In this document: in pieces, positions 5,179 through 46,047 of the stretch
How the letters are laid out: each line of letters starts with the position of its first letter
Numbering within the stretch: the first letter of the stretch is position 1
Virus record (IMG/VR): IMGVR_UViG_2667527592_000002
Reading direction: 5' to 3' (one strand)
DNA: 64,000 nucleotides
Origin: a virus
Taxonomy: Duplodnaviria; Heunggongvirae; Uroviricota; Caudoviricetes
Program-made: the position numbers and the translations under genes
Notes under the pieces: generated by a model
Database searches by the model: none
What the model was told of the DNA's origin: nothing
Seen by the model: the letters and a program-made list of their open reading frames with translations, nothing else

Positions 5179-6216
5179 TTACCAGAGCTTCGCGGCGTAC
5201 TGCGTTTGGGGGAATGTGTATCCGTAACGTTCTTCGATTGCTTTGCCGTATTTTTTACGAGCTTCATTCAGTTTAATGCCGGTCAGGTCGTCTCCAGAGG
5301 CCATCATTACCTCTAACAATTCCAGATCCATTTTATCCAGCCTTGCCATTGCTTCACGTGATGTACGTATCTTACGCTCAATGATATGGCGAATAGCCGG
5401 ATCGGCATCCTCCAGCATCTTAGCGGATTTCTGCTTAAGGCTTTCATTGCGAATATCGATGTTCCTTAAGATGTACGACTTCGCAACGTAGCTTGGCTGG
5501 TGTTTTTCCAGGTCACGAACACGATATAAGTTAAAATCGCCGAGAAGGCTGCAAGGTACCGATTCGACGCCAGAATAAATTGTAATGCTCCGGCGTTCAC
5601 CAACATTATTGACAACGGGGATCGTTGTCTTCGGTAGTCTTGCGAAAACCAATGCGCCATGTGCGCCAACTCTAAAGCGAGAAAGGGCATTGCTGCCTTC
5701 GATGTTTGTTGTCAGCACAACATCTGTATATGCCTCTTTACGCGCCCGGTAGATCTCGCCTTCAGGCTCAGCTTCAAAGAAGCGCTGTTCTTCTTCAAGA
5801 GCGCCTACGATTTGAGAAAAAACCCTATTTTTCAGGCTTTTCTTTATGATTTTGTCGTATTTTTTGAGCAATTGTTCACGTGTAAATGTACGTGTTGTTG
5901 TAGCGCTTTGCACAACAACATGCGTGCTTTGATTGGTGTCCTCAATGATGAATGGGATCGGAGAATATACAGACTCAACAATGTTCGACGCTTTGCCGTC
6001 GGCATCGCGGCACATGTCAACGAAGGCTTTCCATTCAGCAAGACATTTTTCAGCTTCTTCTAATATGTTTTGGTCATGCGTTAATGCAACATGGCGGAAT
6101 TCCTCGCCAGCATAACTGGTATCATGGAAAACAGAGTTTGCGACCACCAGCTCTTTCCACCGTTCAGCGGTTTGCAGGAACCGTTTGTACTCTTTCTCGA
6201 TCGACTTCTTACTCAT
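5179..6216 (-). CDS. hypothetical protein (345 aa); candidate lysogeny regulator by position
   Basis: ORF track; ATG with AGGA RBS; operator-like motif 16-33 bp upstream; sits between terminase and lox-cre. Confidence 0.55.
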   Translation of the reverse strand: MSKKSIEKEYKRFLQTAERWKELVVANSVFHDTSYAGEEFRHVALTHDQNILEEAEKCLAEWKAFVDMCRDADGKASNIVESVYSPIPFIIEDTNQSTHVVVQSATTTRTFTREQLLKKYDKIIKKSLKNRVFSQIVGALEEEQRFFEAEPEGEIYRARKEAYTDVVLTTNIEGSNALSRFRVGAHGALVFARLPKTTIPVVNNVGERRSITIYSGVESVPCSLLGDFNLYRVRDLEKHQPSYVAKSYILRNIDIRNESLKQKSAKMLEDADPAIRHIIERKIRTSREAMARLDKMDLELLEVMMASGDDLTGIKLNEARKKYGKAIEERYGYTFPQTQYAAKLW

Positions 6217-6231
6217 TATTCCTACTCGATT

Positions 6232-6249
6232 TAGTTTTCTAACATAAAA
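6232..6249 (+). promoter_or_regulatory. operator-like motif (TAGTTTTCTAACATAAAA)
   Basis: Recurring asymmetric motif; overlaps promoter region of 5179..6216. Confidence 0.45.
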
Positions 6250-6425
6250 TTACTATGACAAATTTATGTCGAATAACAGAGTGAGTAAAGGATCGAACTG
6301 TGATTTTTTGTCATCAATTTTAGAAAACCAACCGTAGAAACCACACTTCGCAAATTAAAGACCATGAAGGCAACGTGTTACTGGTCATCATCAATCTATG
6401 ATGGATTTAAAAAAATCGGCATTTT

Positions 6426-6610: not shown

Positions 6611-7639
6611 ATGGGTGAATTAATTATCTCTGGCAGTTCCGGTGGTTTTCTGCGCAACATTGGCAAAGAGTACCAGGAAGCCGCAGAAAACTTTATGCGG
6701 TTCATGAATGACCAGGGGGCTTATGCGCCGAATACTCTGCGCGACCTCCGGTTGGTGTTTCATTCCTGGGCGCGCTGGTGTCACGCTCGCCAGCTTGCCT
6801 GGTTTCCGATCTCACCAGAAATGGCCCGCGAGTATTTTCTTCAGCTGCATGATGCCGATCTGGCTTCGACCACCATTGATAAGCACTACGCCATGCTGAA
6901 CATGCTGCTTTCGCATTGTGGCCTTCCGCCACTTTCGGATGATAAAAGTGTTTCTCTGGCTATGCGGCGCATCCGGCGCGAAGCAGCAACTGAAAAAGGC
7001 GAACGAACAGGCCAGGCTATACCGCTGCGGTGGGACGATCTGAAACTGCTCGACGTCCTGTTGTCCAGGTCAGAACGGCTGGTGGACCTGCGCAACCGGG
7101 CTTTTCTCTTTGTTGCATACAATACGCTGATGCGTATGTCGGAAATCTCGCGTATTCGTGTAGGAGATCTGGACCAGACAGGTGACACTGTCACGCTACA
7201 TATTTCACACACGAAGACAATAACGACCGCCGCCGGGCTTGATAAGGTGCTTTCCCGTCGCACTACCGCTGTGCTGAATGACTGGCTGGATGTTTCCGGG
7301 CTTCGCGAACATCCTGACGCAGTGCTGTTCCCGCCGATACACCGTAGCAATAAGGCCAGGATCACGACAACGCCCCTTACTGCACCTGCAATGGAGAAAA
7401 TATTCAGCGACGCCTGGGTGTTGCTGAATAAAAGAGATGCTACGCCAAACAAAGGAAGATACCGGACGTGGACCGGGCATAGTGCACGCGTCGGGGCCGC
7501 TATTGATATGGCTGAAAAGCAGGTGTCTATGGTGGAGATCATGCAGGAAGGAACCTGGAAGAAACCGGAAACACTTATGCGGTATCTTCGCCGTGGCGGC
7601 GTGTCTGTGGGGGCTAATAGCCGCCTGATGGATTCGTAA
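6611..7639 (+). CDS. cre: Cre-type tyrosine recombinase
   Basis: 342 aa; long collinear similarity to P1 Cre including GHSARVGAA...W...Y active-site region and NTLMRMSEISRIRVGD block. Confidence 0.9.
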   Translation: MGELIISGSSGGFLRNIGKEYQEAAENFMRFMNDQGAYAPNTLRDLRLVFHSWARWCHARQLAWFPISPEMAREYFLQLHDADLASTTIDKHYAMLNMLLSHCGLPPLSDDKSVSLAMRRIRREAATEKGERTGQAIPLRWDDLKLLDVLLSRSERLVDLRNRAFLFVAYNTLMRMSEISRIRVGDLDQTGDTVTLHISHTKTITTAAGLDKVLSRRTTAVLNDWLDVSGLREHPDAVLFPPIHRSNKARITTTPLTAPAMEKIFSDAWVLLNKRDATPNKGRYRTWTGHSARVGAAIDMAEKQVSMVEIMQEGTWKKPETLMRYLRRGGVSVGANSRLMDS

Positions 7640-7642
7640 ATT

Positions 7643-7658
7643 AAATTTCTAACACATC
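7643..7658 (+). promoter_or_regulatory. operator-like motif (AAATTTCTAACACATC)
   Basis: Recurring motif; just downstream of cre stop, upstream of 7713 operon. Confidence 0.4.
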
Positions 7659-7712
7659 TTTTTAGATTAACGCCTTTGCTGTAAAGTACCCTCGCCTATT
7701 TAGGAGGGTGCT

Positions 7713-12799: not shown

Positions 12800-13084
12800 T
12801 TAACTCCTACATTCAGGGCAAGAGTTCCCTTCCGCAAAATAGGGGAAACTGCTATCAAGCTCATCACACCATCTGCGATGGTCGTAGCACCAAAACGCCT
12901 CCCACGGTGCACGGAAATACTTCATCCACCAGGACACTCGATCAGGTATATCTGCTGGTGGCAGCTCTTCTGGCAATAATTTGCCTGATAATTCCCTTTC
13001 CGCCCGCGCCAGCATTCCTTTTAGACTCGCATTCTCTTTTTCAAGAATCTCTATGCGCGCCTGTAACTCAGCTTTCGTTGGCAT
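12800..13084 (-). CDS. hypothetical protein (about 94 aa, coiled-coil N-terminus)
   Basis: ORF track frame; start placed at ATG 13084 after GAGG RBS rather than the longer overlapping extension. Confidence 0.4.
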   Translation of the reverse strand: MPTKAELQARIEILEKENASLKGMLARAERELSGKLLPEELPPADIPDRVSWWMKYFRAPWEAFWCYDHRRWCDELDSSFPYFAEGNSCPECRS

Positions 13085-13835
13085 GGTCCGCCTCATGTTT
13101 ATCAGCCACCAGCGGCAATAAAGCCTTCGCCATTTCATGAACCAACATGGCATCAATGACGCCTAGCGTATGGCCCGGCTTAATCTTTAATGCGGCCTCA
13201 AGATAGCCTCTTTCCAGAGTGGTTTTTACGCTTTTCCTGGGCGCTTGTTGGGAACTATCCGGAAAATCCGGATGGTTCCCAGCCTCATAAGCTACCCGCA
13301 ACCAGTGCATGAATGTTTCCGCAGACACACAACCGCAGTCCACATCGATTTTCCCGCGTTGCTGTTCCAGCCATTGCTCAAAATCTAACTTGTAAGCCTT
13401 ACTTTCAGACTTAACTTTCTGAGACGCTATGCGAGCTGCTTCATACTGTTCACGAGTGACAACCGATGTAAACGCACTGCGATCAAGGTCACTGATATCG
13501 CAAATAATGCCATCAATGGAATAATTCTTTGATGATTGGTAATTTTTATGGCGCGTACCAAAAAGAACCGTAGCGCGACTACTACCTGGCATCGTAATGG
13601 ATAGATGGCAAAAATCTTTTCCATCAGGCCATCCACGCCCCTTAGATAATTCCTTCACTAACAAGTCAATCAGTGTCATAGCTTTACCATCCTTGCAAGG
13701 CGCTAAAGCTATTTTGGCAAGCTCCAATACTTCATCTGCTGTGTATCCAGCACCGTGACCATACATTTCGATACGGGAAATAATATCTGAAATACGCTCT
13801 TTAGTGATTCTTGTCATAGTTTTATTTCCTTGCAT
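13068..13835 (-). CDS. hypothetical protein (255 aa)
   Basis: ORF track. Confidence 0.5.
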   Translation of the reverse strand: MQGNKTMTRITKERISDIISRIEMYGHGAGYTADEVLELAKIALAPCKDGKAMTLIDLLVKELSKGRGWPDGKDFCHLSITMPGSSRATVLFGTRHKNYQSSKNYSIDGIICDISDLDRSAFTSVVTREQYEAARIASQKVKSESKAYKLDFEQWLEQQRGKIDVDCGCVSAETFMHWLRVAYEAGNHPDFPDSSQQAPRKSVKTTLERGYLEAALKIKPGHTLGVIDAMLVHEMAKALLPLVADKHEADHANES

Positions 13836-14023
13836 GGTTCGCCTTTACGGCAAACAGCTACACGGTCATTTCTTACATTAACCACAGTCACCGTTCCGTC
13901 ATCGCATTGAATAACGATGAAAGAGTGTTCATTCTCTTTTGTGCAATGTTGCTGTTCCCCTGCTGTAACAGTGAGGGGAATTAATAAAATAATAATTACT
14001 GCGAATTTACTAAATGTTGCCAT
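13814..14023 (-). CDS. small secreted protein with signal peptide and 4 Cys (69 aa)
   Basis: N-terminal hydrophobic signal-like segment; ORF track. Confidence 0.4.
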   Translation of the reverse strand: MATFSKFAVIIILLIPLTVTAGEQQHCTKENEHSFIVIQCDDGTVTVVNVRNDRVAVCRKGEPCKEIKL

Positions 14024-14047
14024 AGCAATCTTTCTTTCTGTTTTTCA

Positions 14048-14341
14048 TTATGGTTGAATCCAGTTATCTTCAATAGCAATGCTCAATCTTTGTAACCATT
14101 CTGCTAATTTCAGCATTGCTTCTCTTTCGCTTAAACCACGAGGAAAATCATCAAGCGATATTGTTGGCTTGAAGTTTCCCAAATTATCCATTTCAACGGT
14201 CAGATTTTGCTCCAGCACGGTATTCCTTACGCGGCTATTGTGCCGAAGCAAATATACTGAACGTGATTTATTGGTTTTGTGGTCGAACGTATATTCGGTA
14301 AGTATCATCTGGCTTCCGCCATGATTATTACCGCGCCACAT
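14048..14341 (-). CDS. hypothetical protein (97 aa)
   Basis: ORF track. Confidence 0.4.
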   Translation of the reverse strand: MWRGNNHGGSQMILTEYTFDHKTNKSRSVYLLRHNSRVRNTVLEQNLTVEMDNLGNFKPTISLDDFPRGLSEREAMLKLAEWLQRLSIAIEDNWIQP

Positions 14342-14648
14342 AATTACTCCGTGTTAATTTTACCTTTATCGCGAACACCTTTACCGGTTTATCGCCGAAG
14401 TGCGGGTGTGTGATTATCTTGATTTCATAGCCGTCATACGGAACATCAATTCTGCGGCTGGAATCGTCGCGCTTCGGATATCCCTTTGTGATAATCAGGC
14501 GGTCATACTTACGGTTAACGAGGCGCTTATTCCAGTAGTCATTACACAGGCGATACTCTTCCGTTTTCTCCCCGCGAATCATGGCATCGAAGTATTCACC
14601 TTTAACGGCAAGTTGCAGGTTAGCCATTACCTCACCTCCAGTCTCCAT
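14328..14648 (-). CDS. hypothetical protein, possible ASCH/PUA-like fold (106 aa)
   Basis: ORF track; weak resemblance only. Confidence 0.45.
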   Translation of the reverse strand: METGGEVMANLQLAVKGEYFDAMIRGEKTEEYRLCNDYWNKRLVNRKYDRLIITKGYPKRDDSSRRIDVPYDGYEIKIITHPHFGDKPVKVFAIKVKLTRSNYVAR

Positions 14649-14887
14649 ACCGCCTGACCAATCCGGCTGGCATGGGTATCTTTGGATACTGTTCCGTCTT
14701 TAGCCAGCTCCATAAGAATTTTGCGCAAATCTGCCGAACGCCATTCTTCATCAGGAAATTCCTTCTCCATTGCCAACCGCAGATTCCAGGTTGCCATCCT
14801 GAATGGATATTCCCCGCCGAGAGCTTTATCTTGCAGGGCAGCCCGGGAACGCATCACCTGCAAAACCTTCTCTTTTACATCCATCAT
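14627..14887 (-). CDS. hypothetical protein (86 aa)
   Basis: ORF track. Confidence 0.4.
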   Translation of the reverse strand: MMDVKEKVLQVMRSRAALQDKALGGEYPFRMATWNLRLAMEKEFPDEEWRSADLRKILMELAKDGTVSKDTHASRIGQAVWRLEVR

Positions 14888-15897
14888 TTCGCCTCCTGCG
14901 GCGGTTCTGGTAGCGGCATCCAGTGAGTTACTTTCGATGCCGGTTCTTCCCCATCGTCAGTAACTGCCCACCATTTGTTTCTCGACCAATCGTAATACCC
15001 TTCGAAGGTATTGCACTCAGTCCAGCCGTAAGACTTACCCCAACACCAAACATACTGTTTATCGTTCGGCATTCGCTCACTACAGCTTATCCAACTATCC
15101 GGAATGACCGGAGAGTTGCCAGTCAGTCTACGCAAAATAGCCTTAACAGCCTCAATACGGTCATCATCGCAACTTTCCAGCGTATCTATGCGATCGAGCA
15201 TGATGATGGCGTTATCAATATCAGGATTGCCGGTCCACTCATTACCGCGATTGGATTCGGCAGTCTGGTTGCCGCGTACTGGTTGATTCTCGGCTTTACC
15301 CTGTCTGTCGTTGCTGCATGAATGCCCTTCCAGCCAGGCCAATGCTTGTCGCATGAAATACGCAATATGTTTGCCGTGGTAATCGTCTTCATTGATGTGA
15401 AAAGCGATACTGCGGATGTATTCAATTGCGTTTTCAATGGCCTCCGGCGTTATCGGCGCTGACATATTTTGATTTTGGAGTGCCAAGACGCGGCTGGCAT
15501 CCTCAACACCTTTAACGGCATCTGCGCAGTAGTTATAGCGATTGCATTCCACTAACTTTTGCTTTAGGTTTTCAATTGCTTGCGCGACATCAGCCTGTAT
15601 TACCGGCGCTGGCGGTGCGGTATAAAACTTCGTCCCCAACGGCAACAACTTCATCGCTTTTTCTCCCTTAATGATGCGATAAGTTGATTTCCCGCCAAGG
15701 TCTACCGTTCCATCCATAACAAGGCCATATCGCTTCTCTGAAACTTCACCAATAGGCTCTGCTTCCAGCGATGCCAGTGCGATACGAAACACATTGGCAA
15801 GCAGGCTGTCTGAAGATTGGTTATCGTGCGCCGGGTCGCTCAGGAAACCAGTGATGAATGATTTAATCTCCGCGTTTTCTCTGGTAATAGTGATCAT
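14884..15897 (-). CDS. hypothetical protein with DUF551-like C-terminus (337 aa)
   Basis: C-terminal W-rich segment ending THWMPLPEPP typical of phage DUF551 proteins. Confidence 0.55.
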   Translation of the reverse strand: MITITRENAEIKSFITGFLSDPAHDNQSSDSLLANVFRIALASLEAEPIGEVSEKRYGLVMDGTVDLGGKSTYRIIKGEKAMKLLPLGTKFYTAPPAPVIQADVAQAIENLKQKLVECNRYNYCADAVKGVEDASRVLALQNQNMSAPITPEAIENAIEYIRSIAFHINEDDYHGKHIAYFMRQALAWLEGHSCSNDRQGKAENQPVRGNQTAESNRGNEWTGNPDIDNAIIMLDRIDTLESCDDDRIEAVKAILRRLTGNSPVIPDSWISCSERMPNDKQYVWCWGKSYGWTECNTFEGYYDWSRNKWWAVTDDGEEPASKVTHWMPLPEPPQEAK

Positions 15898-16103
15898 TTG
15901 TTAATCCTTAAAACTTTATGCCCTGGCGCAAAAGCACGTGTTTTGTCTTTGCTTATTCGCCACCCGTCTTTACGGGCCTCTTTTGCACAACCAGACCATG
16001 ACGTACCGATATACTCACCGAAGTCTGGCACTGGATATACACCTTCCGTACACTGGCGGCAGTCACAATAGAGATGCATGGTGTAACTTGCGGCAATAGC
16101 CAT
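15894..16103 (-). CDS. small Cys-rich hypothetical protein (69 aa)
   Basis: ORF track; ATGA overlap with upstream gene. Confidence 0.4.
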   Translation of the reverse strand: MAIAASYTMHLYCDCRQCTEGVYPVPDFGEYIGTSWSGCAKEARKDGWRISKDKTRAFAPGHKVLRINK

Positions 16104-16104
16104 A

Positions 16105-16296
16105 TCAGTCTCCTTTAGTGCGCAGGTGGTTTTTCCAGCGGTTTTGCGCCGCGCTGCGCTTATCTTTTACTCCCTCTCTGGCAATTCCAGAATATAAGTA
16201 CAACACCACACGGCGATTGCTAACTCTCAACCACTGGCTGGGATAGCAACGTCTGTATACACGGGAAATAAGCATCTTTGCTTTACGGTTTTTCAT
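16105..16296 (-). CDS. small basic protein, tandem paralogue 2 (63 aa)
   Basis: Starts MKNRKAK; about 20 nt at the 5' end identical to neighbouring paralogue. Confidence 0.4.
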   Translation of the reverse strand: MKNRKAKMLISRVYRRCYPSQWLRVSNRRVVLYLYSGIAREGVKDKRSAAQNRWKNHLRTKGD

Positions 16297-16469
16297 CTTA
16301 CTGCGTACCCTTTCTTCCGCCTGTTCTGTGACGCGCTAGGCTTACGCTTTGCGGCAAAAGCCACCTGACCAAATGGATGGAGTACCGCTATCTTATGGTT
16401 GCTGATAACCAGCTCCACCACACGCACAGGTCGCTGTAAAAAAAGTCGTTTTGCTTTACGGTTTTTCAT
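16293..16469 (-). CDS. small basic protein, tandem paralogue 1 (58 aa)
   Basis: Hand-translated: MKNRKAKRLFLQRPVRVVELV...; stop overlaps next ATG (ATGA); below track cutoff. Confidence 0.35.
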   Translation of the reverse strand: MKNRKAKRLFLQRPVRVVELVISNHKIAVLHPFGQVAFAAKRKPSASQNRRKKGYAVR

Positions 16470-16641
16470 CGTTTTGCTCTCCTGCGTTTCTTTGCTGCTC
16501 GTCGTGCCGCCGCAATACCTGTATGGCGGCGCTTTGGTGCCGGGATGATGTTGTCAGCCATCAGGACATGCGGCTTTGTAATTAGCGCAGAAGCCCAAAA
16601 ACGAGTCGGATACGGTAACAAGCCGATACATGCCACACGCA

Positions 16642-17121
16642 TTACTCACCTTCTTTGATGCGAATGCCTGCGGCGCGTGGCACATTAACTTCCACGATGC
16701 GCACTGTTGGTTTGTACATCTCAATCGCTGTCAGCCAGTCAGCGCCGGTCATACGCTTTTCTGCATCGCCATTAGTCCACTTAACCGGTACACCAATAGC
16801 CTTCATCGCAATTTCTATTTCCCCGGCAATGGCGCTTTTCCCGCAACCAGTAAAACCAGATACAACGACAAGAACTTCGCCTTTTGCTGGTTTTATTTCC
16901 CGCGCCTCCACCTCTGCAATTCGGCACATAGCATCGATATTTGTGTCTTCCTGGCGTTTAACTTCATCCAATAATGCCAACGCGATATCTGGCGAAAAGT
17001 GCTTCATAAAATCGTTAAGCGCATTAATTCGCTGATCGAAAGGCATTACAGGCGCTTCACCAGCAATTTTTGTTTTTTCAGCAATTTCACGAAGCTTTTG
17101 ATAGTCAATTTTGTTTGTCAT
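16642..17121 (-). CDS. P-loop NTPase-like protein (159 aa)
   Basis: Walker A-like VVVSGFTGCGKSA; start overlaps stop of PAPS-reductase-like gene. Confidence 0.5.
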   Translation of the reverse strand: MTNKIDYQKLREIAEKTKIAGEAPVMPFDQRINALNDFMKHFSPDIALALLDEVKRQEDTNIDAMCRIAEVEAREIKPAKGEVLVVVSGFTGCGKSAIAGEIEIAMKAIGVPVKWTNGDAEKRMTGADWLTAIEMYKPTVRIVEVNVPRAAGIRIKEGE

Positions 17122-17996
17122 GCCACTACCTCTTCGAATTTCAACTCCAATTGGTCACCCCAGATTTCACATGATTCGGAACACGAACCAGTATCAAACC
17201 GCTTGGCCTGCACCATCGCCTGATACAAATTTCTGTAGTCGCTGTCGGCATACATTCTGGCAATCCCGTCAAGCGTCAGGTGACCACGGTACATAACGTC
17301 TTTACCTGTTCTGCGATGACCATCCCTGACGTGTTTGCCTGTAACCAGTTCATTAAAAACCCGCATCAGACCTGGTTCGTCTTTACATGCAAGCCCCAGC
17401 TTTTGCGTTGACTTTTTGATGCAAAAAACACAGTTCCCGAGGTGCTCCGGGATTTGCAAATCAAAAGGTTGTTTTCGCCACCACCGGATAACATCCGACT
17501 TATCAAAATCTGACAGCTCGGCAAGATACCGGACGCCCGGTTTCGGTTTCAGCCTACGGGGTTCGTCCGCACGAATACCCAGCCATGTGATGTAATTCCC
17601 TCGCCCAAAATGGTCATCGCAATATTTCGTGAAAGGGGTGAGTTTTAGCCTGTCAGTACAGAACGCGCCGCCGATGTATGGCGTACCGTACTTTTTAACC
17701 ATGTCCATAAACGGTTTAAGCACCGGCATTCGCGTCTGAATATCCTTTGGTTCCCATTCCGTATAACCATTTGGCTGCCCAAGTTCTGGATTTATATCGA
17801 CCTGCAACACCGTTAGCGGTACATTCCAGAACTTCACAACCTCACGAATAAAGCGATACGTCAGAGGATGTTCACAGCCGGTATCCATAAAAATGAAATG
17901 GACGCTAGCGCCAGCTTTTCGCTGTGCTTCCATCAGATGAACGAGATAAGCCGATGTTCGTCCACCTGAAAAGCTGACGACTTGATGCATACTCAC
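17118..17996 (-). CDS. PAPS reductase-family protein (PP-loop ATP pyrophosphatase fold)
   Basis: VVSFSGGRTSAYL ... IFMDTGCEHPLTYRFI parallels the CysH N-terminal region. Confidence 0.8.
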   Translation of the reverse strand: MSMHQVVSFSGGRTSAYLVHLMEAQRKAGASVHFIFMDTGCEHPLTYRFIREVVKFWNVPLTVLQVDINPELGQPNGYTEWEPKDIQTRMPVLKPFMDMVKKYGTPYIGGAFCTDRLKLTPFTKYCDDHFGRGNYITWLGIRADEPRRLKPKPGVRYLAELSDFDKSDVIRWWRKQPFDLQIPEHLGNCVFCIKKSTQKLGLACKDEPGLMRVFNELVTGKHVRDGHRRTGKDVMYRGHLTLDGIARMYADSDYRNLYQAMVQAKRFDTGSCSESCEIWGDQLELKFEEVVA

Positions 17997-17999
17997 GGT

Positions 18000-18692
18000 T
18001 TATTCCTGAACGCGCTTAAACTCGATTACCCATACCCACGGGTTAGATAGCCAGTTATCCTGCCCGTAAATACTGCGCCAGATATCACCAAAACCAACGC
18101 GATAAACAGCTTCCGGCGGCGTAATTTTGTACATCGCCGGAGATGCGCCTTCTGCTTTAGCATCTGCCTCGCTCATATCACGCAGCCGTTCCACACGCAC
18201 GTCGGTAATTTCCAGCAAAATGCGCGATGCCCAGCGCGGCATGTGAATTGATGGACGCCACCCGCCATCAAATTTTTCATTCACAGTGTGAGGTTTCCAG
18301 TCGGCATCATCGGGTATCGACCACAAGCCGTAATCACCCGGCTTTTGCTCACAACTGGCCCGATAAATCCTTGCTGCGTTCTTCTCATCGCCACGACAAA
18401 GGTTGTCGTTCCAGTCCACACTGCAACCATCCTCATTGCCTAATATCGCCCACGCCTCACGGACCCATATGCGATCACCAACGTTACCGAACGGGCATAA
18501 ACCATGTTCAGGTGCATCCATAACGTGGGTATAGACACCATTGCGTTTCTTGGTCGGTTTACGGATAACCAGGCAGTTATCGGCCCTGACATTTTTTACA
18601 GGTCGGCGAGTCTGCGTCTTCCTTCCTTCGAGGATGGCCCTGACCATCTCATCGTTAAAAATCATCCCGCGTTCTTTCATTTTTTGATCCAC
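18000..18692 (-). CDS. hypothetical protein (230 aa)
   Basis: ORF track; N-terminal MIFNDEMVRAILEGRKTQTRR motif common in phage proteins. Confidence 0.5.
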   Translation of the reverse strand: MDQKMKERGMIFNDEMVRAILEGRKTQTRRPVKNVRADNCLVIRKPTKKRNGVYTHVMDAPEHGLCPFGNVGDRIWVREAWAILGNEDGCSVDWNDNLCRGDEKNAARIYRASCEQKPGDYGLWSIPDDADWKPHTVNEKFDGGWRPSIHMPRWASRILLEITDVRVERLRDMSEADAKAEGASPAMYKITPPEAVYRVGFGDIWRSIYGQDNWLSNPWVWVIEFKRVQE

Positions 18693-18696
18693 CTCA

Positions 18697-19692
18697 TCAG
18701 TTATTGAACGTGATCACTCCGCGCTCGATGGCGAAGTCGAAAAGCTGGTTAGCTGCTACGTAAAGGCGTATGCCATGTGCTTTTTCCCATGCCCGGACAT
18801 CGTTTTCTGCGCTTCTGGCGCAGTCATCGCAAAGAGGAACAGCCCAGCGGTCGTGTTCGTTTAACGAGCGGGCGCGGTACATGAATGGGTGATTAACCTT
18901 GCCGCCGCAGCCTACACACGGGCGAGACACCACAAACCGGAGATAAGCCGGGCTTTTTCCGAGTAAGGTTTTTGGACGGCGCATATATAGGAGGCCAGAA
19001 TCTTCATCGACGGACAGATTGACGATCTGCTCTGCGGAAATATCCACCAGCTCGCGGGTACTATGCTCCCAGGTAATATCCGACTCTTTCAGAGTGCCGG
19101 TAGGGATTTCAGTTTTTGGCTGACAAAATGCAATGCGACCAGCTTCATCAGGCAGTTCGTCTTTAAGATTCCGGCGAATGGCCCAAAAGGTGAGTTCAAC
19201 CATGCTCAGATCGCGATCTGGCGGAAGTTTTAACTCGCTGGCAGCCCAGTTCATAATCCAGTTGGCGCGATTCAGTGACAGTTGGTCTTCCAGCTTGCCG
19301 TATCCCTTCATCATGTATTCCGCATCATGCTTCCAGCACAGGCGAACGGCAGAACCGTTATAGAAATGGGTGGTTAACTGGTGGCTGCAATCGCGCTTAT
19401 CATGCGCCTGGCAATCGTGAATGTTGGTGCTAACCCAGTGAACGAGAGAATCCTCACCACCTAACGCGTTAAATACGCGCTCACTTTGAAAAAAGGGTGC
19501 CAGTGACTGGTTGGTAACCAGTGAATAATTCAGGTCAACGACACCATCAGGGGTGTTTTCAGCCTGTTCACGCGGCAATGGGGATATAAGAAAACGACGT
19601 CCTGCGCCGATGTAATTGCTGGTGGGCTTATCTACAGGAAAGACAGCCACACCAGTTTCATTTACGACATATGGGGTGATTATTGCACTCAT
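18697..19692 (-). CDS. hypothetical protein with C-terminal Cys-rich zinc-ribbon-like motif (331 aa)
   Basis: ORF track; CVGCGG ... CDDCA. Confidence 0.5.
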   Translation of the reverse strand: MSAIITPYVVNETGVAVFPVDKPTSNYIGAGRRFLISPLPREQAENTPDGVVDLNYSLVTNQSLAPFFQSERVFNALGGEDSLVHWVSTNIHDCQAHDKRDCSHQLTTHFYNGSAVRLCWKHDAEYMMKGYGKLEDQLSLNRANWIMNWAASELKLPPDRDLSMVELTFWAIRRNLKDELPDEAGRIAFCQPKTEIPTGTLKESDITWEHSTRELVDISAEQIVNLSVDEDSGLLYMRRPKTLLGKSPAYLRFVVSRPCVGCGGKVNHPFMYRARSLNEHDRWAVPLCDDCARSAENDVRAWEKAHGIRLYVAANQLFDFAIERGVITFNN

Positions 19693-19731
19693 AATGCATA
19701 CCGACTCTGTTTTGTTCCGAGTGGTAAAATA

Positions 19732-19750
19732 ATATGTTAGAAAACTAAAA
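19732..19750 (-). promoter_or_regulatory. operator-like motif (minus strand TTTTAGTTTTCTAACATAT)
   Basis: Recurring motif 40-58 bp upstream of 18697..19692 operon. Confidence 0.45.
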
Positions 19751-19789
19751 TCAATGTTCTAACGCATTTTGAGTGCGTAAATGATTTGA

Positions 19790-22729: not shown

Positions 22730-23229
22730 TTGTCAGCTCCTTTGCGAATCTGTTCCGCCCATTCTTCAAGGGATTTCTCCGCATATTCACCGGACAGGCC
22801 ATCAATCGGGTGCGATTCATTAGCCAACTCTTCTTTCGCTGACAGAATCATGCGCGTAACGTCGAAAACTTCACGTAAAGACTTATTGATAAATCCGTGG
22901 TTGAAAGCAGCAGCAAGACGGCTTGCGGTATAGTTAATCCCCTCGTTGCGAGCCTCCGCACGAATTTCAGCCAGGAAAGCATCGGTGACTGGCATATTTC
23001 CTGTTGCCTTCATGGCCTCCAAAATAACCAGAACGCCATCTCTCCCTACCACCTCGCAGATAACCTCGGTGTTGTCGCCAACAACATCGCAGAATGCCTG
23101 AACTGCTTTACGAGCAAGTGCATTCTCCGCCGCTAGCGCAGCACACGCTTTCTCAAGTCGGGAAATTTCCGTTACATACTCAGCGTTACGCTCTGCCAGT
23201 TGCGCGGGCGTTAAACCTTCAGACTTCAT
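22726..23229 (-). CDS. coiled-coil protein, paralogue of 21525..22322 C-terminal domain (167 aa)
   Basis: ORF track; paralogy seen by eye. Confidence 0.5.
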   Translation of the reverse strand: MKSEGLTPAQLAERNAEYVTEISRLEKACAALAAENALARKAVQAFCDVVGDNTEVICEVVGRDGVLVILEAMKATGNMPVTDAFLAEIRAEARNEGINYTASRLAAAFNHGFINKSLREVFDVTRMILSAKEELANESHPIDGLSGEYAEKSLEEWAEQIRKGADK

Positions 23230-23536
23230 ACACTCTCCTTTCGAAATAAACGTACTGATTAATCATGCCCAGGGGCATTTCGAGTTTTTCCGCGATCTCA
23301 CGGCGGGGAACGCCACACTGATGAAGCTGCCGCGCCAGCTCTATATCGCTCTGCCGGTATTTGGCTGACTGGTGAAAGTCACCTTTCAGAATCATGCTGA
23401 TCCCAAGCTCTCGCGCTTTAGTCCTGACGGCATCACCGGTACGACCGATCAGCTTCCCAATACTCTCGACCGTCATAGTTCCGGCGCACTGGCGGAGTAT
23501 CATGACTTCTGCCCTTCCCCATCCCCGCCAGCTCAC
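23219..23536 (-). CDS. HTH DNA-binding protein (105 aa)
   Basis: Two HTH-like segments (IGKLIGRTGDAVRTKARELGI; REIAEKLEMPLG). Confidence 0.5.
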   Translation of the reverse strand: MSWRGWGRAEVMILRQCAGTMTVESIGKLIGRTGDAVRTKARELGISMILKGDFHQSAKYRQSDIELARQLHQCGVPRREIAEKLEMPLGMINQYVYFERRVYEV

Positions 23537-24144
23537 GCAGAACTCCTTCTAACCAAAAGAACGCCATCTTCAGAAACAACGTTGCAGGACTTCAGGTAAT
23601 TCATTGCCTCTTTCGGTAATGGATTCTTTGGATCGGCGTTTGCCAGGGATTTCGATAACCTCATGATAAATTTGATCATTACCTTCTGGCGGAGCTTGTG
23701 CTCATGAGATAAAGAAAGGTAATAGGAAATGGTATGGGCTAAACGCTCACGAAGCTGTTCTGTGCCGTGATATACAGCAGCGATATCACGCAGTGCATTG
23801 ACCAGTTCCCGGTAAATATGTGGAGCAACCTGGCATTCAATGTTGGTTGGTGACTCATAAATTACAGTCAGCCCCAGCTTTTCAGCCAGCGCGTGCTCTG
23901 CACGAGCACCAACCGATTCTTCCCATCGATTGAGCAAATAGATCGCATCAGCAGAACGCACCATTGCCAGGCAAATATCCATGTATTCACTCTGGCAAAG
24001 GCCACCAGGTAACACCGCTGGATTCAGAACGATATGCCCTTCAGCCATCAGCTCGCTCGCTTTCGCATTAAACGCCGCACGGTTGTAATCTGGATAACCA
24101 GTCATCGGCCCCGCGATGTAAATTTTCAAAACACGTTTCACCAT
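23533..24144 (-). CDS. DUF4406-like protein (nucleoside 2-deoxyribosyltransferase-like fold), C-terminal extension
   Basis: N-terminal KIYIAGPMTGYPDYN ... NPA ... WEES.GA motifs; start at ATG 24144, not the longer track extension. Confidence 0.55.
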   Translation of the reverse strand: MVKRVLKIYIAGPMTGYPDYNRAAFNAKASELMAEGHIVLNPAVLPGGLCQSEYMDICLAMVRSADAIYLLNRWEESVGARAEHALAEKLGLTVIYESPTNIECQVAPHIYRELVNALRDIAAVYHGTEQLRERLAHTISYYLSLSHEHKLRQKVMIKFIMRLSKSLANADPKNPLPKEAMNYLKSCNVVSEDGVLLVRRSSA

Positions 24145-24299
24145 CAAAATTTCCCCAAAATCGTGACGCAAAACATAAGCACTGCGAAAAGCTCAATACC
24201 AAGCTCAAGTAGCGCCAACGCCCCGAAAAACAACACATAGAACAGGCCAATCTCATTCACAGATGGCTGGTGGATCGCACTTAAAGCTATAAGCATCAT
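24144..24299 (-). CDS. small membrane protein (51 aa)
   Basis: Hand-translated MMLIALSAIHQ...IGLFYVLFFGALALLELGIELFAVLMFCVTILGKF; stop overlaps next start (ATGA); below track cutoff. Confidence 0.4.
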   Translation of the reverse strand: MMLIALSAIHQPSVNEIGLFYVLFFGALALLELGIELFAVLMFCVTILGKF

Positions 24300-24332
24300 G
24301 TCCTCCAAACAGTTATCAGGAATGATATTAAT

Positions 24333-24350
24333 GTTTTGTGTTAGAAAATC
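24333..24350 (-). promoter_or_regulatory. operator-like motif (minus strand GATTTTCTAACACAAAAC)
   Basis: In divergent promoter region between 24299 operon and ref-like gene. Confidence 0.45.
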
Positions 24351-24416
24351 AATTTTGAATATCTAACTATTTTGATCAATCATAGAAAAATCGCTGAAAA
24401 GTAAGAGGCAGCCATC

Positions 24417-24995
24417 ATGCAGAAACAGAGCTATTGGGAGAAACAGAGACAAAAAGCCATGCAAAAATTGGCTGACCCGGCCTGGCGAGAGGAACAAAGG
24501 GCAAAGCGCCTTCAACAAGCTCAACGCCAGCAGCAGCGAGCGAGAGAAAAAGCCGCATCGCCTGAATATCGGCAAAAAAAAATTGAAAAAGCAAAGCAAT
24601 ATGACCAGCGGAGAAAAGAGAAAGCTGTATCCGCTCCGTCCAAAAAAACACGCACGTCACGCGGCCTGAAGGGCAGATCACTCACAGCCGATGAGCGCCG
24701 GATACAGACCGCTATCGGTACTCTCCCCTGCATTGCCTGCCATATTCACGGGCAACATAGCCCAGTAGTATCCCTGCACCATATCTTCGGGAGAACGGCA
24801 GAGAACGCGCATAAATATGTCCTCCCTTTGTGTAAATGGCACCACCAGTACGCAGCGCCAGCCGAGGTCCGAGAACAATATCCCTGGCTGGTCCCTGTTC
24901 ATGCTGATGGAAAAATAGGCGGAAAAGCAGATTTCATACGGCACAATGCCGATGAAATGGCGTTGTATCAGATGGCAATTGAATTGATAAATTAG
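24417..24995 (+). CDS. Ref-like HNH-motif protein with basic disordered N-terminus
   Basis: 192 aa; K/R/Q-rich N-terminal half, C-terminal CIACHIHGQH ... HHIFG ... CKWHH; resembles P1 Ref architecture. Confidence 0.5.
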   Translation: MQKQSYWEKQRQKAMQKLADPAWREEQRAKRLQQAQRQQQRAREKAASPEYRQKKIEKAKQYDQRRKEKAVSAPSKKTRTSRGLKGRSLTADERRIQTAIGTLPCIACHIHGQHSPVVSLHHIFGRTAENAHKYVLPLCKWHHQYAAPAEVREQYPWLVPVHADGKIGGKADFIRHNADEMALYQMAIELIN

Positions 24996-25010
24996 TTTTC
25001 TAACATTTTA
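24993..25010 (+). promoter_or_regulatory. operator-like motif (TAGTTTTCTAACATTTTA)
   Basis: Overlaps stop codon of ref-like gene. Confidence 0.45.
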
Positions 25011-25494: not shown

Positions 25495-25597
25495 AATACT
25501 GACTGTTGCGCCCTGGCATTATCGTGGGGTATATTTCTACGGCACCTTAGAAAAACGGGTGCCGGGATTGGAACCCCGGATAATGCAAAAGGCGACA

Positions 25598-25622
25598 CAG
25601 ACGCCGAAAGCGTCTTTTTTTG
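25598..25622 (+). terminator. rho-independent terminator (GACGC-CGAAA-GCGTC then T7)
   Basis: 5-bp GC-rich stem, 5-nt loop, seven T. Confidence 0.6.
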
Positions 25623-25806
25623 TGTCATGCCATCGCACAGCCATACGTAGCGTTTAGCTCAGAGATCAATGGTAGTGCTGGCTGGGCTGCCGAAAGGCAG
25701 GCCGGTTCCCTTTTGCGCCGGTAGTTCCAACCCAGTCAGTGCTACCGCCATTGAGATTGGAACCTCACGCGGTAGCTCCTTAAATTAGCAAAAGGAGGCT
25801 GCCAAT
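25623..25806 (+). ncRNA. candidate structured regulatory RNA (immI/c4-like position)
   Basis: GAAA-tetraloop hairpin CTGCC-GAAA-GGCAG; repeats CGGTAGTTCC / CGGTAGCTCC; inverted GTTCCAA / TTGGAAC; immediately upstream of icd-like RBS. Confidence 0.25.
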
Positions 25807-28367: not shown

Positions 28368-28582
28368 GTAAACAAAATGAAGTTTTATGTTATAAAAACA
28401 ATTAACTACATCAACATGATTTAGGCCAAATTTCGGTCAAAAAATAAAATCCACAAAAAGTGGTTGACACTATTTTGGAAATCACAAACTACACATAATC
28501 CATCGCGCTAACGGCTCCCGTTGAAGGTTCTTTTGACGATTAACTTTCAGCCGAAGCGCGGTAGGGAGTCATAACGCCAAAG

Positions 28583-35968: not shown

Positions 35969-36010
35969 CATTTGTGTTAGATAATTAACATGCATTTTCT
36001 AACACAAATG
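35969..36010. promoter_or_regulatory. inverted pair of operator-like motifs (13-bp perfect arms CATTTGTGTTAGA / TCTAACACAAATG)
   Basis: Arms 16 bp apart; right arm ends 8 bp before rdgC start. Confidence 0.5.
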
Positions 36011-38533: not shown

Positions 38534-40195
38534 TTAACCTAACTTCGCCCAGGTATCACGCAGCCCAACGGTGCGGTTAAATACCGGTTTTTCCGCCGTA
38601 GAATGGCGGCTGTCGAGGCAGAAATAACCTTCACGCTCAAACTGGAATGCTTTACCCGCTACCGCTTCTTTCAGCGACGGTTCAGCAAAGCCTTGTTTGA
38701 TCACCAGCGATTCCGGGTTAATCACCGACAGGAAATCATCCGCAGCACCTGGGTTCGGTACACTGAACAGACGGTCGTACAGGCGAATTTCAACCGGCAG
38801 CGCATGTGCCGCGCTCACCCAGTGAATAACGCCTTTCACTTTACGACCATCTGCCGGATCTTTGCTTAAGGTGTCGGCGTCATAAGTACAGAAGATGGTG
38901 GTGATATTGCCTTCGGCATCTTTCTCCACGCGTTCAGCCTTAATGACGTAAGCATTACGCAGACGCACTTCTTTACCCAGCACCAGACGTTTGTACTGCT
39001 TGTTAGCTTCTTCGCGGAAATCGGCGCGGTCGATCCAAATCTCACCGCTAAACGGCACCTGACGGCTACCCATTTCCGGTTTGTTTGGATGGTTCGGCAT
39101 GGTGACCATTTCGCCTTCGCCCTGGTAGTTTTCGATAACCAGTTTCACCGGATCGATAACCGCCATTGCGCGCGGGGCATTTTCGTTGAGATCTTCACGG
39201 ATGCAGGATTCCAGCGACGCCATCTCAATGGTGTTGTCCTGCTTGGTCACGCCGATGCGTTTGCAGAACTCACGAATAGAAGCCGCAGTGTAACCACGAC
39301 GACGCAGACCGGAAATGGTCGGCATACGCGGGTCATCCCAGCCTTCAACGTGCTTGTCGGTCACCAGCAGGTTCAGCTTACGCTTGGACATCACGGTGTA
39401 TTCCAGATTCAGGCGCGAGAATTCGTACTGGCGCGGGTGAACAGGAATGGTGATGTTGTCCAGTACCCAGTCATACAGACGACGGTTGTCCTGGAACTCA
39501 AGCGTACACAGAGAGTGCGTAATACCTTCCAGCGCATCGCTGATGCAGTGGGTGAAGTCGTACATCGGGTAGATGCACCACTTGTTGCCAGTCTGGTGGT
39601 GTTCAGCAAACTTAATACGGTACAGCACCGGGTCGCGCATCACGATAAACGGCGAAGCCATGTCGATTTTCGCACGCAGGCAGGCTTTACCTTCTTCAAA
39701 ACCACCGGCACGCATTTTTTCGAACAGCGCCAGGTTCTCTTCAACGCTGCGGTCGCGGTACGGGCTGTTTTTACCCGGCTGCGTCAGGGTGCCGCGGTAT
39801 TCGCGGATCTGTTCCGGCGTCAGTTCGTCAACATACGCCAGGCCTTTGTTGATCAGTTCAACAGCATAGGCATGGAGTTTGTCAAAATAATCGGAGGAGT
39901 AACGGATGTTGCCAGACCAGTGAAAACCTAACCATTCAACGTCGTTTTTAATCGACTCAACGTACTCGATATCTTCTTTTACCGGGTTAGTGTCGTCGAA
40001 ACGCAGGTTGCACTGGCCTTTATAGTCCTGGGCGATCCCGAAGTTCAGGCAGATAGATTTCGCATGACCAATATGCAGATAGCCATTCGGTTCCGGCGGG
40101 AAACGGGTATGTACTGTGGTGTGCTTACCACTGGCCAGATCTTCATCGATGATCTGACGAATAAAGTTAGTCGGGCGGGCTTCTGCCTCACTCAT
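38534..40195 (-). CDS. glnS: glutaminyl-tRNA synthetase
   Basis: 553 aa; near-identical to E. coli GlnRS from memory ([17 protein letters not shown]...; HIGH in YLHIGHAKS; MSK in VMSKRKL). Confidence 0.95.
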
Positions 40196-45889: not shown

Positions 45890-45900
45890 AACTCTAATGA

Positions 45901-45920
45901 TTTGTGTTAGAAAACTAAAA
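45901..45920 (-). promoter_or_regulatory. operator-like motif (minus strand TTTTAGTTTTCTAACACAAA)
   Basis: Recurring motif between divergent 45889 and 46048 genes. Confidence 0.45.
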
Positions 45921-46047
45921 TTAAATCACATAACAACATGCGTGTTAATAGATTTTATTTTACTAAACCTATTGACTAAATCACAAAGTAGGTATTGTTA
46001 GCCCGTCAAAAGAACCTTCACGCCGCGCCCGAATTTAGGGCTTAACC

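Follow-up and report, generated by a model that had tools for sequence, protein, structure and literature searches.

The three minus-strand genes considered here are best explained as the promoter-proximal start of a repressor-controlled early operon that would encode a membrane peptide, a DUF4406 enzyme of the nucleoside 2-deoxyribosyltransferase (NDT) superfamily and an HTH protein; as a whole, this explanation was given a probability of about one in two. In the lysogen, a D6-type C1 repressor would occupy the operator TTGATTTTCTAACA, and because the −35 element and spacer of the leftward promoter coincide with this operator, the genes would remain off until induction or infection. Derepression would then yield three accessory products that are coupled in translation but independent in function, of which the first would be a 50-aa membrane peptide and the third a bipartite HTH DNA-binding protein. 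The second, a minimal NDT-superfamily member, would work like DNPH1/Rcl, MilB or the phage enzyme DmtZ: Glu83, placed by Tyr9 and with help from Asp66, would be the residue that attacks C1′ of a (deoxy)nucleoside 5′-monophosphate, the 5′-phosphate being held by Ser77 and the GPMTG loop. Release or exchange of the base would reshape or sanitize the nucleotide pool in early replication. The C-terminal 100 aa of this protein would serve as a non-catalytic helical adaptor, composed of modules that Ea/nin-type proteins of enterobacterial phages have shuffled among themselves.

Gene content and layout of the locus

Judged by nucleotide identity, the window, that is, the whole 64,000-nt stretch of DNA analyzed, is a D6-like (P1-related) phage-plasmid or plasmid prophage of E. 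coli: the region was 97% identical to phage D6 and 99% identical to plasmid pE2863-2, and was found in 112 PLSDB plasmids. The three genes correspond to D6 orf88, orf89 and orf90 (NC_050154; H7U15_gp039-037), and Escherichia phage D6 and D6-like plasmids such as pE2863-2 share the genes, their order and overlaps, the divergent ref and the intergenic region. No material difference was observed, although the PGAP version of the HTH protein is shorter there (94 aa), and the small ORF is not listed in the PLSDB version of the pE2863-2 gene table. Since phage D6 records already list all three genes, the finding, though genuine, is ordinary phage accessory biology and leaves current understanding unchanged.

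All features described for the three leftward genes in the initial annotation were present at the coordinates given there, and the genes are real, each having a Shine-Dalgarno sequence, a PHROG match and a dN/dS value within 0.03–0.45; two plasmid loci (L014 and L015) were excluded from the dN/dS analysis because their genes were fragmented, probably by assembly errors. No Rfam family was detected within the three-gene feature. The divergent neighbor outside the operon (24417..24995, plus strand) encodes a Ref-type RecA-dependent nuclease (Pfam RecA_dep_nuc, E=1.3e-34).

The first gene (D6 orf88; 24144..24299, minus strand) encodes a small hydrophobic protein of 50–51 aa matching PHROG 8890 (E=2.5e-35), which among phages was confined to the D6 lineage. 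Its Kyte-Doolittle hydropathy in 19-residue windows exceeded 1.6 over residues 12–50, in agreement with the transmembrane protein proposed earlier, but the proposed length of 51 aa, counted from the first ATG, is less likely than 50 aa as in D6 orf88, given that the spacing between a GGAGG at 24302-24306 and the ATG is only 2 nt for the first and 5 nt for the second. Nine synonymous and one non-synonymous changes separated the small ORF from a diverged relative (dN/dS 0.03–0.18).

Translational coupling, expected from ATGA overlaps, held in general but not in that form, as the overlaps among these genes were TGATG (1 nt), GTGA (4 nt) and one of 11 nt, and ATGA overlaps start farther downstream in the leftward gene run. 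Likewise, the three genes do look like the head of an operon, but the single long leftward operon once assumed was not recovered: another pair of operators, together with a gap of 97 bp at 19.7 kb, divided it into at least two operator-bearing units.

Putative operator, promoter and repressor

An operator motif was derived by a k-mer recurrence scan. Allowing ≤2 mismatches, TGTTAGAAAACTAA occurred at nine sites in comparison with 0.48 expected, and none of 100 shuffles reached nine. One 14-mer site of this type was located at 24339-24352, within a putative D6-type repressor operator (24334..24357, minus strand; core TTGATTTTCTAACA reading from 24352 to 24339) that faces the leftward operon, scored 29.9 by PWM and ranked second among 11 strong sites. 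A first operator guess, ATTGATCAAAATAGTT, was rejected, as it occurred only once, which equals the chance expectation.

The operator covers the −35 and spacer of a putative sigma-70 promoter (24325..24352, minus strand), composed of a −35 TTGATT (24352-24347), a 16-nt spacer and a −10 TAATAT (24330-24325). This leftward promoter was fully conserved but scored just 8/12 to consensus, for which reason it was not called by the scanner. The operator/promoter block was 100% identical in five diverged D6-like elements, whereas its flanks were variable. The enrichment of the motif and its position over the −35 and spacer bear out the earlier remark that an operator-like motif sits in the promoter.

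Further sites connect the motif with the repressor. The D6-type C1 repressor gene (5179-6216), 99.7% identical to D6 c1, is flanked by two operator sites, others were found 5′ of ref and across its stop codon, the same positions as P1 Oref and Omat, and in at least 8 of the 11 sites the ATT-to-CTAACA direction aims at the adjacent gene start. Such a repeated, asymmetric operator, above chance and over early or regulatory promoters including the surroundings of c1, is what a C1-type operon should display, and we infer that D6-type C1 binds the asymmetric TTGATTTTCTAACA. The arrangement resembles the P1 C1 regulon (Oref, Omat, OpmgT and others), in which many asymmetric single operators likewise lie over early promoters, with sites at ref 5′, ref 3′, lpa and around c1 in both. 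In contrast, the operator sequences differ, since the P1 C1 operator consensus gave 0 matches at ≤3 mismatches; D6 C1 had no tblastn match in P1 at E≤1e-5; and the D6-like site upstream of ref aims leftwards, away from ref.

As operators of this type cluster around D6 c1, the three genes are probably not expressed in the lysogen and would function early in the lytic cycle, and the expected silence makes a role in lysogen immunity unlikely. The operator map itself offers a first-draft repressor regulon for D6-like phage-plasmids, elements that are frequent in E. coli and Salmonella.

The DUF4406 domain and its predicted reaction

The second gene (D6 orf89; 23533..24144, minus strand) encodes a 203-aa protein that is 99–100% identical to RefSeq entries named 'DUF4406 domain-containing protein'. 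The DUF4406 assignment, first made from the motifs KIYIAGPMTGYPDYN, NPA and WEESVGA, all of which were found in the protein, was confirmed by Pfam PF14359, which matched residues 7–96 over profile positions 2–91 of 91 (E=7.8e-34; 116.4 bits vs. a cut-off of 22). This predicted catalytic domain (23857..24126, minus strand) also matched PHROG 355, 'nucleoside 2-deoxyribosyltransferase' (E=3e-43). The expected enzyme fold was recovered as well: the predicted model displayed the flavodoxin-like alpha/beta fold of the NDT/DNPH1/MilB superfamily and matched MilB, NDTs and Rcl. In this monomer model the domain has about 95 residues and four strands, ends after strand 4, and lacks the C-terminal segment that in NDTs and DNPH1 gives the second-subunit active-site residues.

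The catalytic residues of the superfamily were retained. Neither of the sequence outcomes named beforehand as counting against the initial proposal, a lack of DUF4406 or deoxyribosyltransferase similarity and a loss of conserved catalytic residues, was observed. In the profile alignment, kiYIAGP, aDAiy and SxGAxxE fell on the Tyr, Asp and Glu of T. brucei NDT and on the DNPH1 motifs, so that Tyr9 (24118-24120), Asp66 (23947-23949) and Glu83 (23896-23898) aligned with the triad of 2a0k and of DNPH1, at weak E-values (0.11 and 0.19) and with a DNPH1 sequence not drawn from a database record. Ser77 (23914-23916) aligned with an Asp of 2a0k and a Ser of DNPH1. Among 35 homologues, Glu83 and Ser77 were invariant and Asp66 was conserved in at least 90%, while Tyr9 was Phe in several. 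The loop G12-P-M-T15-G16, with nearly invariant Thr and Gly, occupies the position of GSIRGG in DNPH1 but differs in sequence.

In DNPH1, the phosphate is bound by Ser87, which stands six residues ahead of Glu93 (PMC3834327); NDTs hold the 5′-OH there by Asp or Asn, whereas hydrolases carry small uncharged residues (PMC12884076). The DUF4406 protein follows DNPH1 and MilB, with the small, uncharged Ser77 placed six residues before Glu83 and replacing the NDT Asp. An invariant Ser at the position that contacts the 5′-phosphate in DNPH1 favors a predicted dNMP/NMP N-glycosidase. Together with the recurrent fusions of DUF4406 to MazG/PRA-PH-like and DUF550 dATP/dGTP pyrophosphohydrolase domains, it points to free nucleoside 5′-monophosphates as the substrates, which are the products (dNMPs) of such domains. 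The suggestion that the protein could modify or degrade a base in DNA or a signalling nucleotide becomes only one of several readings. The favored one combines the NDT triad, the DNPH1-like Ser and the fusions into a concrete hypothesis that can be tested cheaply.

DNPH1/Rcl, MilB and BlsM are (deoxy)nucleoside 5′-monophosphate N-glycosidases of the same superfamily, from which the DUF4406 domain differs by having no significant sequence similarity, a length of about 95 vs. about 150 aa, no C-terminal segment, a GPMTG loop in place of GSIRGG, and an activity that here is a prediction. A phage precedent is the DutZ-DmtZ pair, in which DmtZ is an NDT-like dAMP hydrolase/deoxyribose-5-phosphate transferase of PurZ0 phages (PMC12884076). 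DmtZ is an NDT-fold enzyme that acts on a dNMP and occurs either next to a dNTP pyrophosphatase or as a fusion with one (PMC12884076), much as DUF4406 is found fused to MazG/PRA-PH-like and DUF550 domains. DmtZ belongs to a different family, detected by a hand-made HMM, and no sign of a modified-base pathway was observed in the D6-like element.

The DUF4406 domain was found in 715 of 50,697 phage records and is common in actinophages, beside replication genes; stand-alone genes also adjoin replication genes in the sampled lambdoid and P2-like prophages. No experimental or functional work on DUF4406 was found in the literature, where its mentions were non-functional. Arthrobacter phage genes named 'deoxycytidylate deaminase' were considered as DUF4406 fusions and rejected, as Shambre1 gp62 is a stand-alone 109-aa DUF4406 protein, and the name is thus a mis-annotation.

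Three other activities were weighed against the predicted N-glycosidase. A counter-defence enzyme or sponge, which early in infection would use a TIR/NDT-type Glu to hydrolyse, or would simply bind, NAD+ or immune signals that are NAD-derived or cyclic nucleotides, comes near the idea in the initial annotation but is unlikely: the best fold and profile matches were NDT, MilB and Rcl rather than TIR, the TIR family model and signature loops gave no match to the protein, the only PADLOC match (CARF2--CARF_HEPN, 16 bits, E=1.2e-3) was weak and taken as chance, and both the dNTP pyrophosphohydrolase-type fusion partners, as opposed to signalling domains, and the actinophage neighborhoods point elsewhere. 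We consider it quite unlikely that the protein is a true NDT swapping bases between deoxynucleosides in salvage, even though PHROG 355 and many database names so label DUF4406 and the closest PDB sequence matches were protozoan NDTs; the best PDB profile matches (2a0k and 6qai) were likewise Lactobacillus and trypanosomatid NDTs (PF05014), which share with it IYIAGP, including the NDT-like AGP, and the G-x-x-E nucleophile motif. The names, however, were transferred by similarity, the 5′-OH-holding Asp is an invariant Ser, the C-terminal NDT segment is missing, and PF05014 did not match the protein at E≤0.1 (one DUF4406 homologue fell just under its cut-off). A single-sequence PDB search returned chance matches only, and an NCBIfam search nothing useful. 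It is very doubtful that the domain lacks catalysis and serves to bind nucleotides or other proteins, or that it acts on a polymer, such as on a base in DNA or RNA. The small domain without second-subunit residues, the replaceability of Tyr9 by Phe and the fusion to an adaptor-like tail would suit such a role, but the invariance of Glu83 and Ser77 under strong purifying selection fits an active site, and to our knowledge the substrates of all characterized members of the fold are free nucleosides, nucleotides or NAD.

C-terminal extension and HTH protein

The 100-aa extension that had been noted after the N-terminal domain is present, and, as judged from sequence comparisons, is a shuffled helical module followed by a tail rather than a catalytic domain. 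The module (residues 105–140, PHIYRELVNALRDIAAVYHGTEQLRERLAHT; 23725..23832, minus strand) is about 35 aa long, carries the nearly invariant motif H.YRELVN.LRD.A..Y.GT.QLRER, and shares 56% identity with the N-terminal part of Eaa2 from ST64T. Matches were found in 82 phage records and 218 protein-cluster representatives, and no Pfam model covered the extension or the module. The module is shared with P22-family EaA/Eaa2, P1 PmgU and KP34-like 'Eaa' proteins, in which it is joined to other domains (DUF551, DUF550 upstream in EaA, ASCH/DUF3850, DHFR_2 and exonuclease); elsewhere Ead/Ea22 was also found as a partner. The PmgU assignment rests on the annotation frame of the P1 match, and PmgT was rejected since the match lies not in its frame but in that of the overlapping pmgU annotation. 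A degenerate MazG domain was also rejected for the extension, which neither resembled the MazG-like half of KashFlow gp162 nor had a Pfam match.

The tail (residues 141–203; 23536..23724, minus strand) was modelled as helical at low confidence (pLDDT 37–70), exists as two alleles differing by a 4-aa indel, and follows the same module in P0242 and P0246, both of which lack DUF4406. Both parts are under purifying selection, with dN/dS of 0.34–0.40 for the module and about 0.5 for the tail. As a long shot, the module might be a common docking or oligomerization handle that brings many unrelated accessory enzymes of temperate enterobacterial phages to one host or phage partner; the DUF4406 cargo would then act in counter-defence, by destroying a nucleotide that is toxic or serves as a signal.

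We regard it as highly improbable that the three genes form one unit of membrane anchor, enzyme and dedicated autoregulator. Their tight, translationally coupled arrangement, conserved in the 112 plasmids, and natural in-frame deletions that fuse the DUF4406 and HTH genes (P0058 and P0237) would fit such a unit, but common descent accounts for conservation inside a single phage lineage. Among the contexts sampled, D6-like elements were the only ones in which the HTH gene adjoined the DUF4406 gene; in the sampled lambdoid and P2-like prophages their homologues sit apart, with HTH homologues lacking DUF4406 in the lambdoid ones and DUF4406 genes lacking the HTH. This separation suggests that the three genes are not one system. 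The restriction of the small protein to the D6 lineage and the mosaic breakpoints inside the DUF4406 gene also speak against a single unit.

The third gene (D6 orf90; 23219..23536, minus strand) encodes a predicted tandem-HTH DNA-binding protein, with a GcrA-DBD-like HTH followed by a resolvase/sigma-r4-like one. The three-helix HTH units matched solved DNA-binding domains, while Pfam HTH matches stayed under their thresholds. The closest known domains were the GcrA DNA-binding domain and the Tc3 and resolvase-type HTHs; unlike GcrA, the protein has no sigma-interacting domain and no Pfam GcrA match. The length of 105 aa given in the initial annotation, which counts from a GTG, was upheld: in 32 HTH homologues Trp6 and Glu10 were nearly invariant, and both lie upstream of the alternative ATG chosen by PGAP, indicating that the long form is correct.

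Gene structure and phage lineage of the operon head

All three minus-strand ORFs described at the operon head were present, encoding a small hydrophobic protein (24144–24299), a 203-aa DUF4406 protein (23533–24144) and a 105-aa HTH protein (23219–23536). The small product was proposed to be a membrane protein, and its hydrophobic stretch was indeed unbroken, with residues 12–50 scoring >1.6 (Kyte-Doolittle); a GGAGG lies 5 nt ahead of its second ATG, the ORF matched a PHROG at E=2.5e-35, and it differed from a diverged relative by 9 synonymous and 1 non-synonymous changes. The overlaps of the three genes are TGATG, GTGA and 11 nt rather than the ATGA given in the initial annotation. RefSeq/PGAP records take an internal ATG as the start of the HTH gene, giving 94 aa, and the D6 record a GTG, giving 105 aa. 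Because Trp6 and Glu10, upstream of the PGAP-preferred ATG, are near-invariant among homologues and the GTG has a good Shine-Dalgarno sequence, the comparison favours the GTG start (23503–23536, minus strand; 105 aa). The dN/dS values were 0.13–0.19 for the DUF4406 domain, 0.41–0.45 for its extension and 0.08–0.29 for the HTH gene.

Escherichia phage D6 is a plasmid prophage related to P1. Positions 23121–24700 were 97% identical to D6, and E. coli plasmid pE2863-2 showed 99.2% identity across the full 23000–24700, which 209 PLSDB plasmids matched. Given these identities, together with the D6 c1 repressor gene (5179–6216; 99.7% identity to AY753669 c1), Dre, pacAB and P1-like tail genes, the feature belongs to a known, sequenced phage lineage. 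In D6, orf88–orf90 are divergent from the Ref-like nuclease gene; orf88 and orf90 are annotated as hypothetical, and orf89 as a DUF4406 domain-containing protein, 'similar to N-term half gp57 of phage N15'. Records of D6 and of >100 plasmids already list the three-gene feature.

Predicted chemistry of the DUF4406 domain

A formal profile search bore out the DUF4406 assignment (Pfam DUF4406, E=7.8e-34, residues 7–96 of the middle gene). A profile built from 35 homologues gave a weak but coherent alignment with the T. brucei and Leishmania NDTs, in the register kiYIAGP = KIYIAGP, aDAiy = CDAVI and SaGAraE = DCGTAFE, and hhalign to human DNPH1 (its sequence not drawn from a database record) gave the identical register. 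Glu83 and Ser77 were invariant among the homologues, Asp66 was kept in at least 90% of them, and residue 9 was Tyr or Phe. In DNPH1, Ser87, six residues ahead of the nucleophile Glu93, binds the 5′-phosphate (PMC3834327), while at the equivalent position NDTs carry Asp or Asn for the 5′-OH, and nucleotide hydrolases and phage DmtZ carry small uncharged residues (PMC12884076). Ser77 aligned at the DNPH1 Ser87 position.

The domain was present in 715 phage records. Mycobacteriophage KashFlow gp162 joins it to a PRA-PH/MazG-like domain, as does PHROG 12019, and uncultured phages have fusions with DUF550 dATP/dGTP pyrophosphohydrolase domains; both kinds of partner enzyme yield dNMPs. Stand-alone copies follow the replication genes in lambdoid prophages; in P2-like prophages they are flanked by the Dam methylase on one side and gpA on the other. 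Several Arthrobacter phage records label stand-alone DUF4406 proteins 'deoxycytidylate deaminase'; for Shambre1 gp62 (L026, 1507–1836), Pfam showed only DUF4406 and NDT similarity, so that name is apparently a mis-annotation. Taking the active-site residues, the Ser77 position and the fusions and contexts together, an N-glycosidase reading is preferred, and the protein may be a nucleoside-5′-monophosphate N-glycosidase (or phosphodeoxyribosyl transferase), to which we assign a probability of about 0.45. Such an enzyme would act early in lytic growth, with the nucleotide pool as its target. The initial interpretation is partly supported, and the underlying observation was confirmed. A literature search found no experimental test of any DUF4406 member.

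A shuffled module in the C-terminal extension

The 100-aa extension had no Pfam match. Its residues 105–140 (23725–23832, minus strand) form a helical module of ~35 aa, also in proteins P0241–P0388, with the near-invariant motif pH.yRELVN.LRDtAvkY.GtqQLREri.rtl (abbreviated H.YRELVN.LRD.A..Y.GT.QLRER), which no Pfam model covers. The module shared 56% identity with the N-terminus of ST64T Eaa2, a protein that then runs on into DUF551. It also matched 'Eaa' proteins from Klebsiella phages of the KP34-like group and, in P1, a stretch lying in the reading frame of the N-terminal region of PmgU. An exhaustive search returned 218 cluster representatives carrying it, at the N-terminus, middle or C-terminus, and once in tandem (P0241). 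Pfam partners included DUF551 (10), DUF3850/ASCH (5), Ead_Ea22 (2), DHFR_2 and an Rv2179c-like exonuclease; the majority of partners had no Pfam domain. Two proteins carried the whole extension, module and tail, without DUF4406. In D6-like plasmids the extension occurs as two alleles (~60% amino-acid identity, 4-aa indel), with recombination breakpoints within the DUF4406 gene (23795–23935, minus strand; loci L011–L013) and the flanking HTH gene back at ~97% identity. Even so, the dN/dS of the extension was 0.34–0.53. It is read as a shuffled, non-catalytic helical adaptor that might serve oligomerisation or docking.

In two natural E. coli variants, P0058 (191 aa) and P0237 (106 aa), DUF4406 sequence runs into the second HTH encoded by the gene downstream, the P0058 junction lying inside the extension; they look like in-frame deletions producing DUF4406-HTH fusions.

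Operator map and accessory-gene context

A recurrence scan of intergenic 14-mers yielded the motif TGTTAGAAAA(C/T)(T/C)AA. The consensus occurred at 9 sites with ≤2 mismatches (0.48 expected), and a PWM gave 11 strong sites with the asymmetric consensus aTT(a/g)(g/a)TTTTCTAACA(c/t)Aa. PWM matches lie at 1793–1816, 6226–6249, 6313–6336, 7636–7659, 24334–24357 (pointing leftward), 24987–25010, 28383–28406 and 45900–45923, and as inverted, overlapping pairs at 19730–19769 (one arm weaker) and 35970–36009. The start of c1 has a site on either side, the lpa-like gene is preceded by one, and at least 8 of the 11 are directed at an adjacent gene start. The divergent ref gene (24417–24995) has one site upstream and another over its stop codon, exactly where P1 carries the C1 operators Oref and Omat. 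The operator-like motif placed in the operon promoter was upheld, the first six bases of site 24334–24357 being TTGATT, a -35 hexamer, with TAATAT 16 nt further on. This putative leftward promoter is weak by consensus and was not called by a promoter scanner; the block ATTGATTTTCTAACACAAAACATTAATATC is unchanged across five elements that differ by up to ~13% in their flanks and coding regions. From these sites we infer repressor binding, and together they sketch a putative regulon for the repressor in D6-like phage-plasmids, parallel to the C1 regulon of P1. If regulation follows the P1 pattern, lysogens should keep the operon off and derepression should switch it on early. A 97-bp gap at 19.7 kb, with another operator pair, breaks the gene string of the 'long leftward operon'.

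For the HTH protein, Pfam gave sub-threshold matches only, PHROG 323 ('transcriptional regulator') matched at E=1.7e-27, and the structure model (pLDDT 85) contains two three-helix units. Its homologues are common in lambdoid prophages, immediately after the replication genes and DUF1627, with no DUF4406 near them there. HTH-DUF4406 adjacency occurred only in D6-like elements among the contexts sampled, and among phage records the small protein matched only D6. The three genes are probably not one functional system; they resemble accessory genes of the lambdoid nin/ea type set behind a promoter under D6 repressor control. What the feature offers is a substrate hypothesis, open to testing, for a widespread DUF, together with the operator map and the unrecognised shuffled module.

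Downstream, under a separate operator, the leftward string 13068–19692 (minus strand) encodes DUF968, a PAPS-reductase-family protein and a 337-aa protein ending in DUF551, with an ASCH-domain protein in addition in the matching region of the closest relative; this is a further set of nucleic-acid-related accessory genes. Rfam isrK (25542–25620, plus strand; 62.5 bits) and C4 antisense RNA (25665–25752, plus strand; 76.7 bits) lie directly upstream of Icd-like and anti-repressor genes, a second immunity region of the immI type, as in P1. The phage-plasmid also carries a full-length class I glutaminyl/glutamyl-tRNA synthetase gene (38534–40195, minus strand; Pfam tRNA-synt_1c, E=6e-130), annotated as glnS in pE2863-2.
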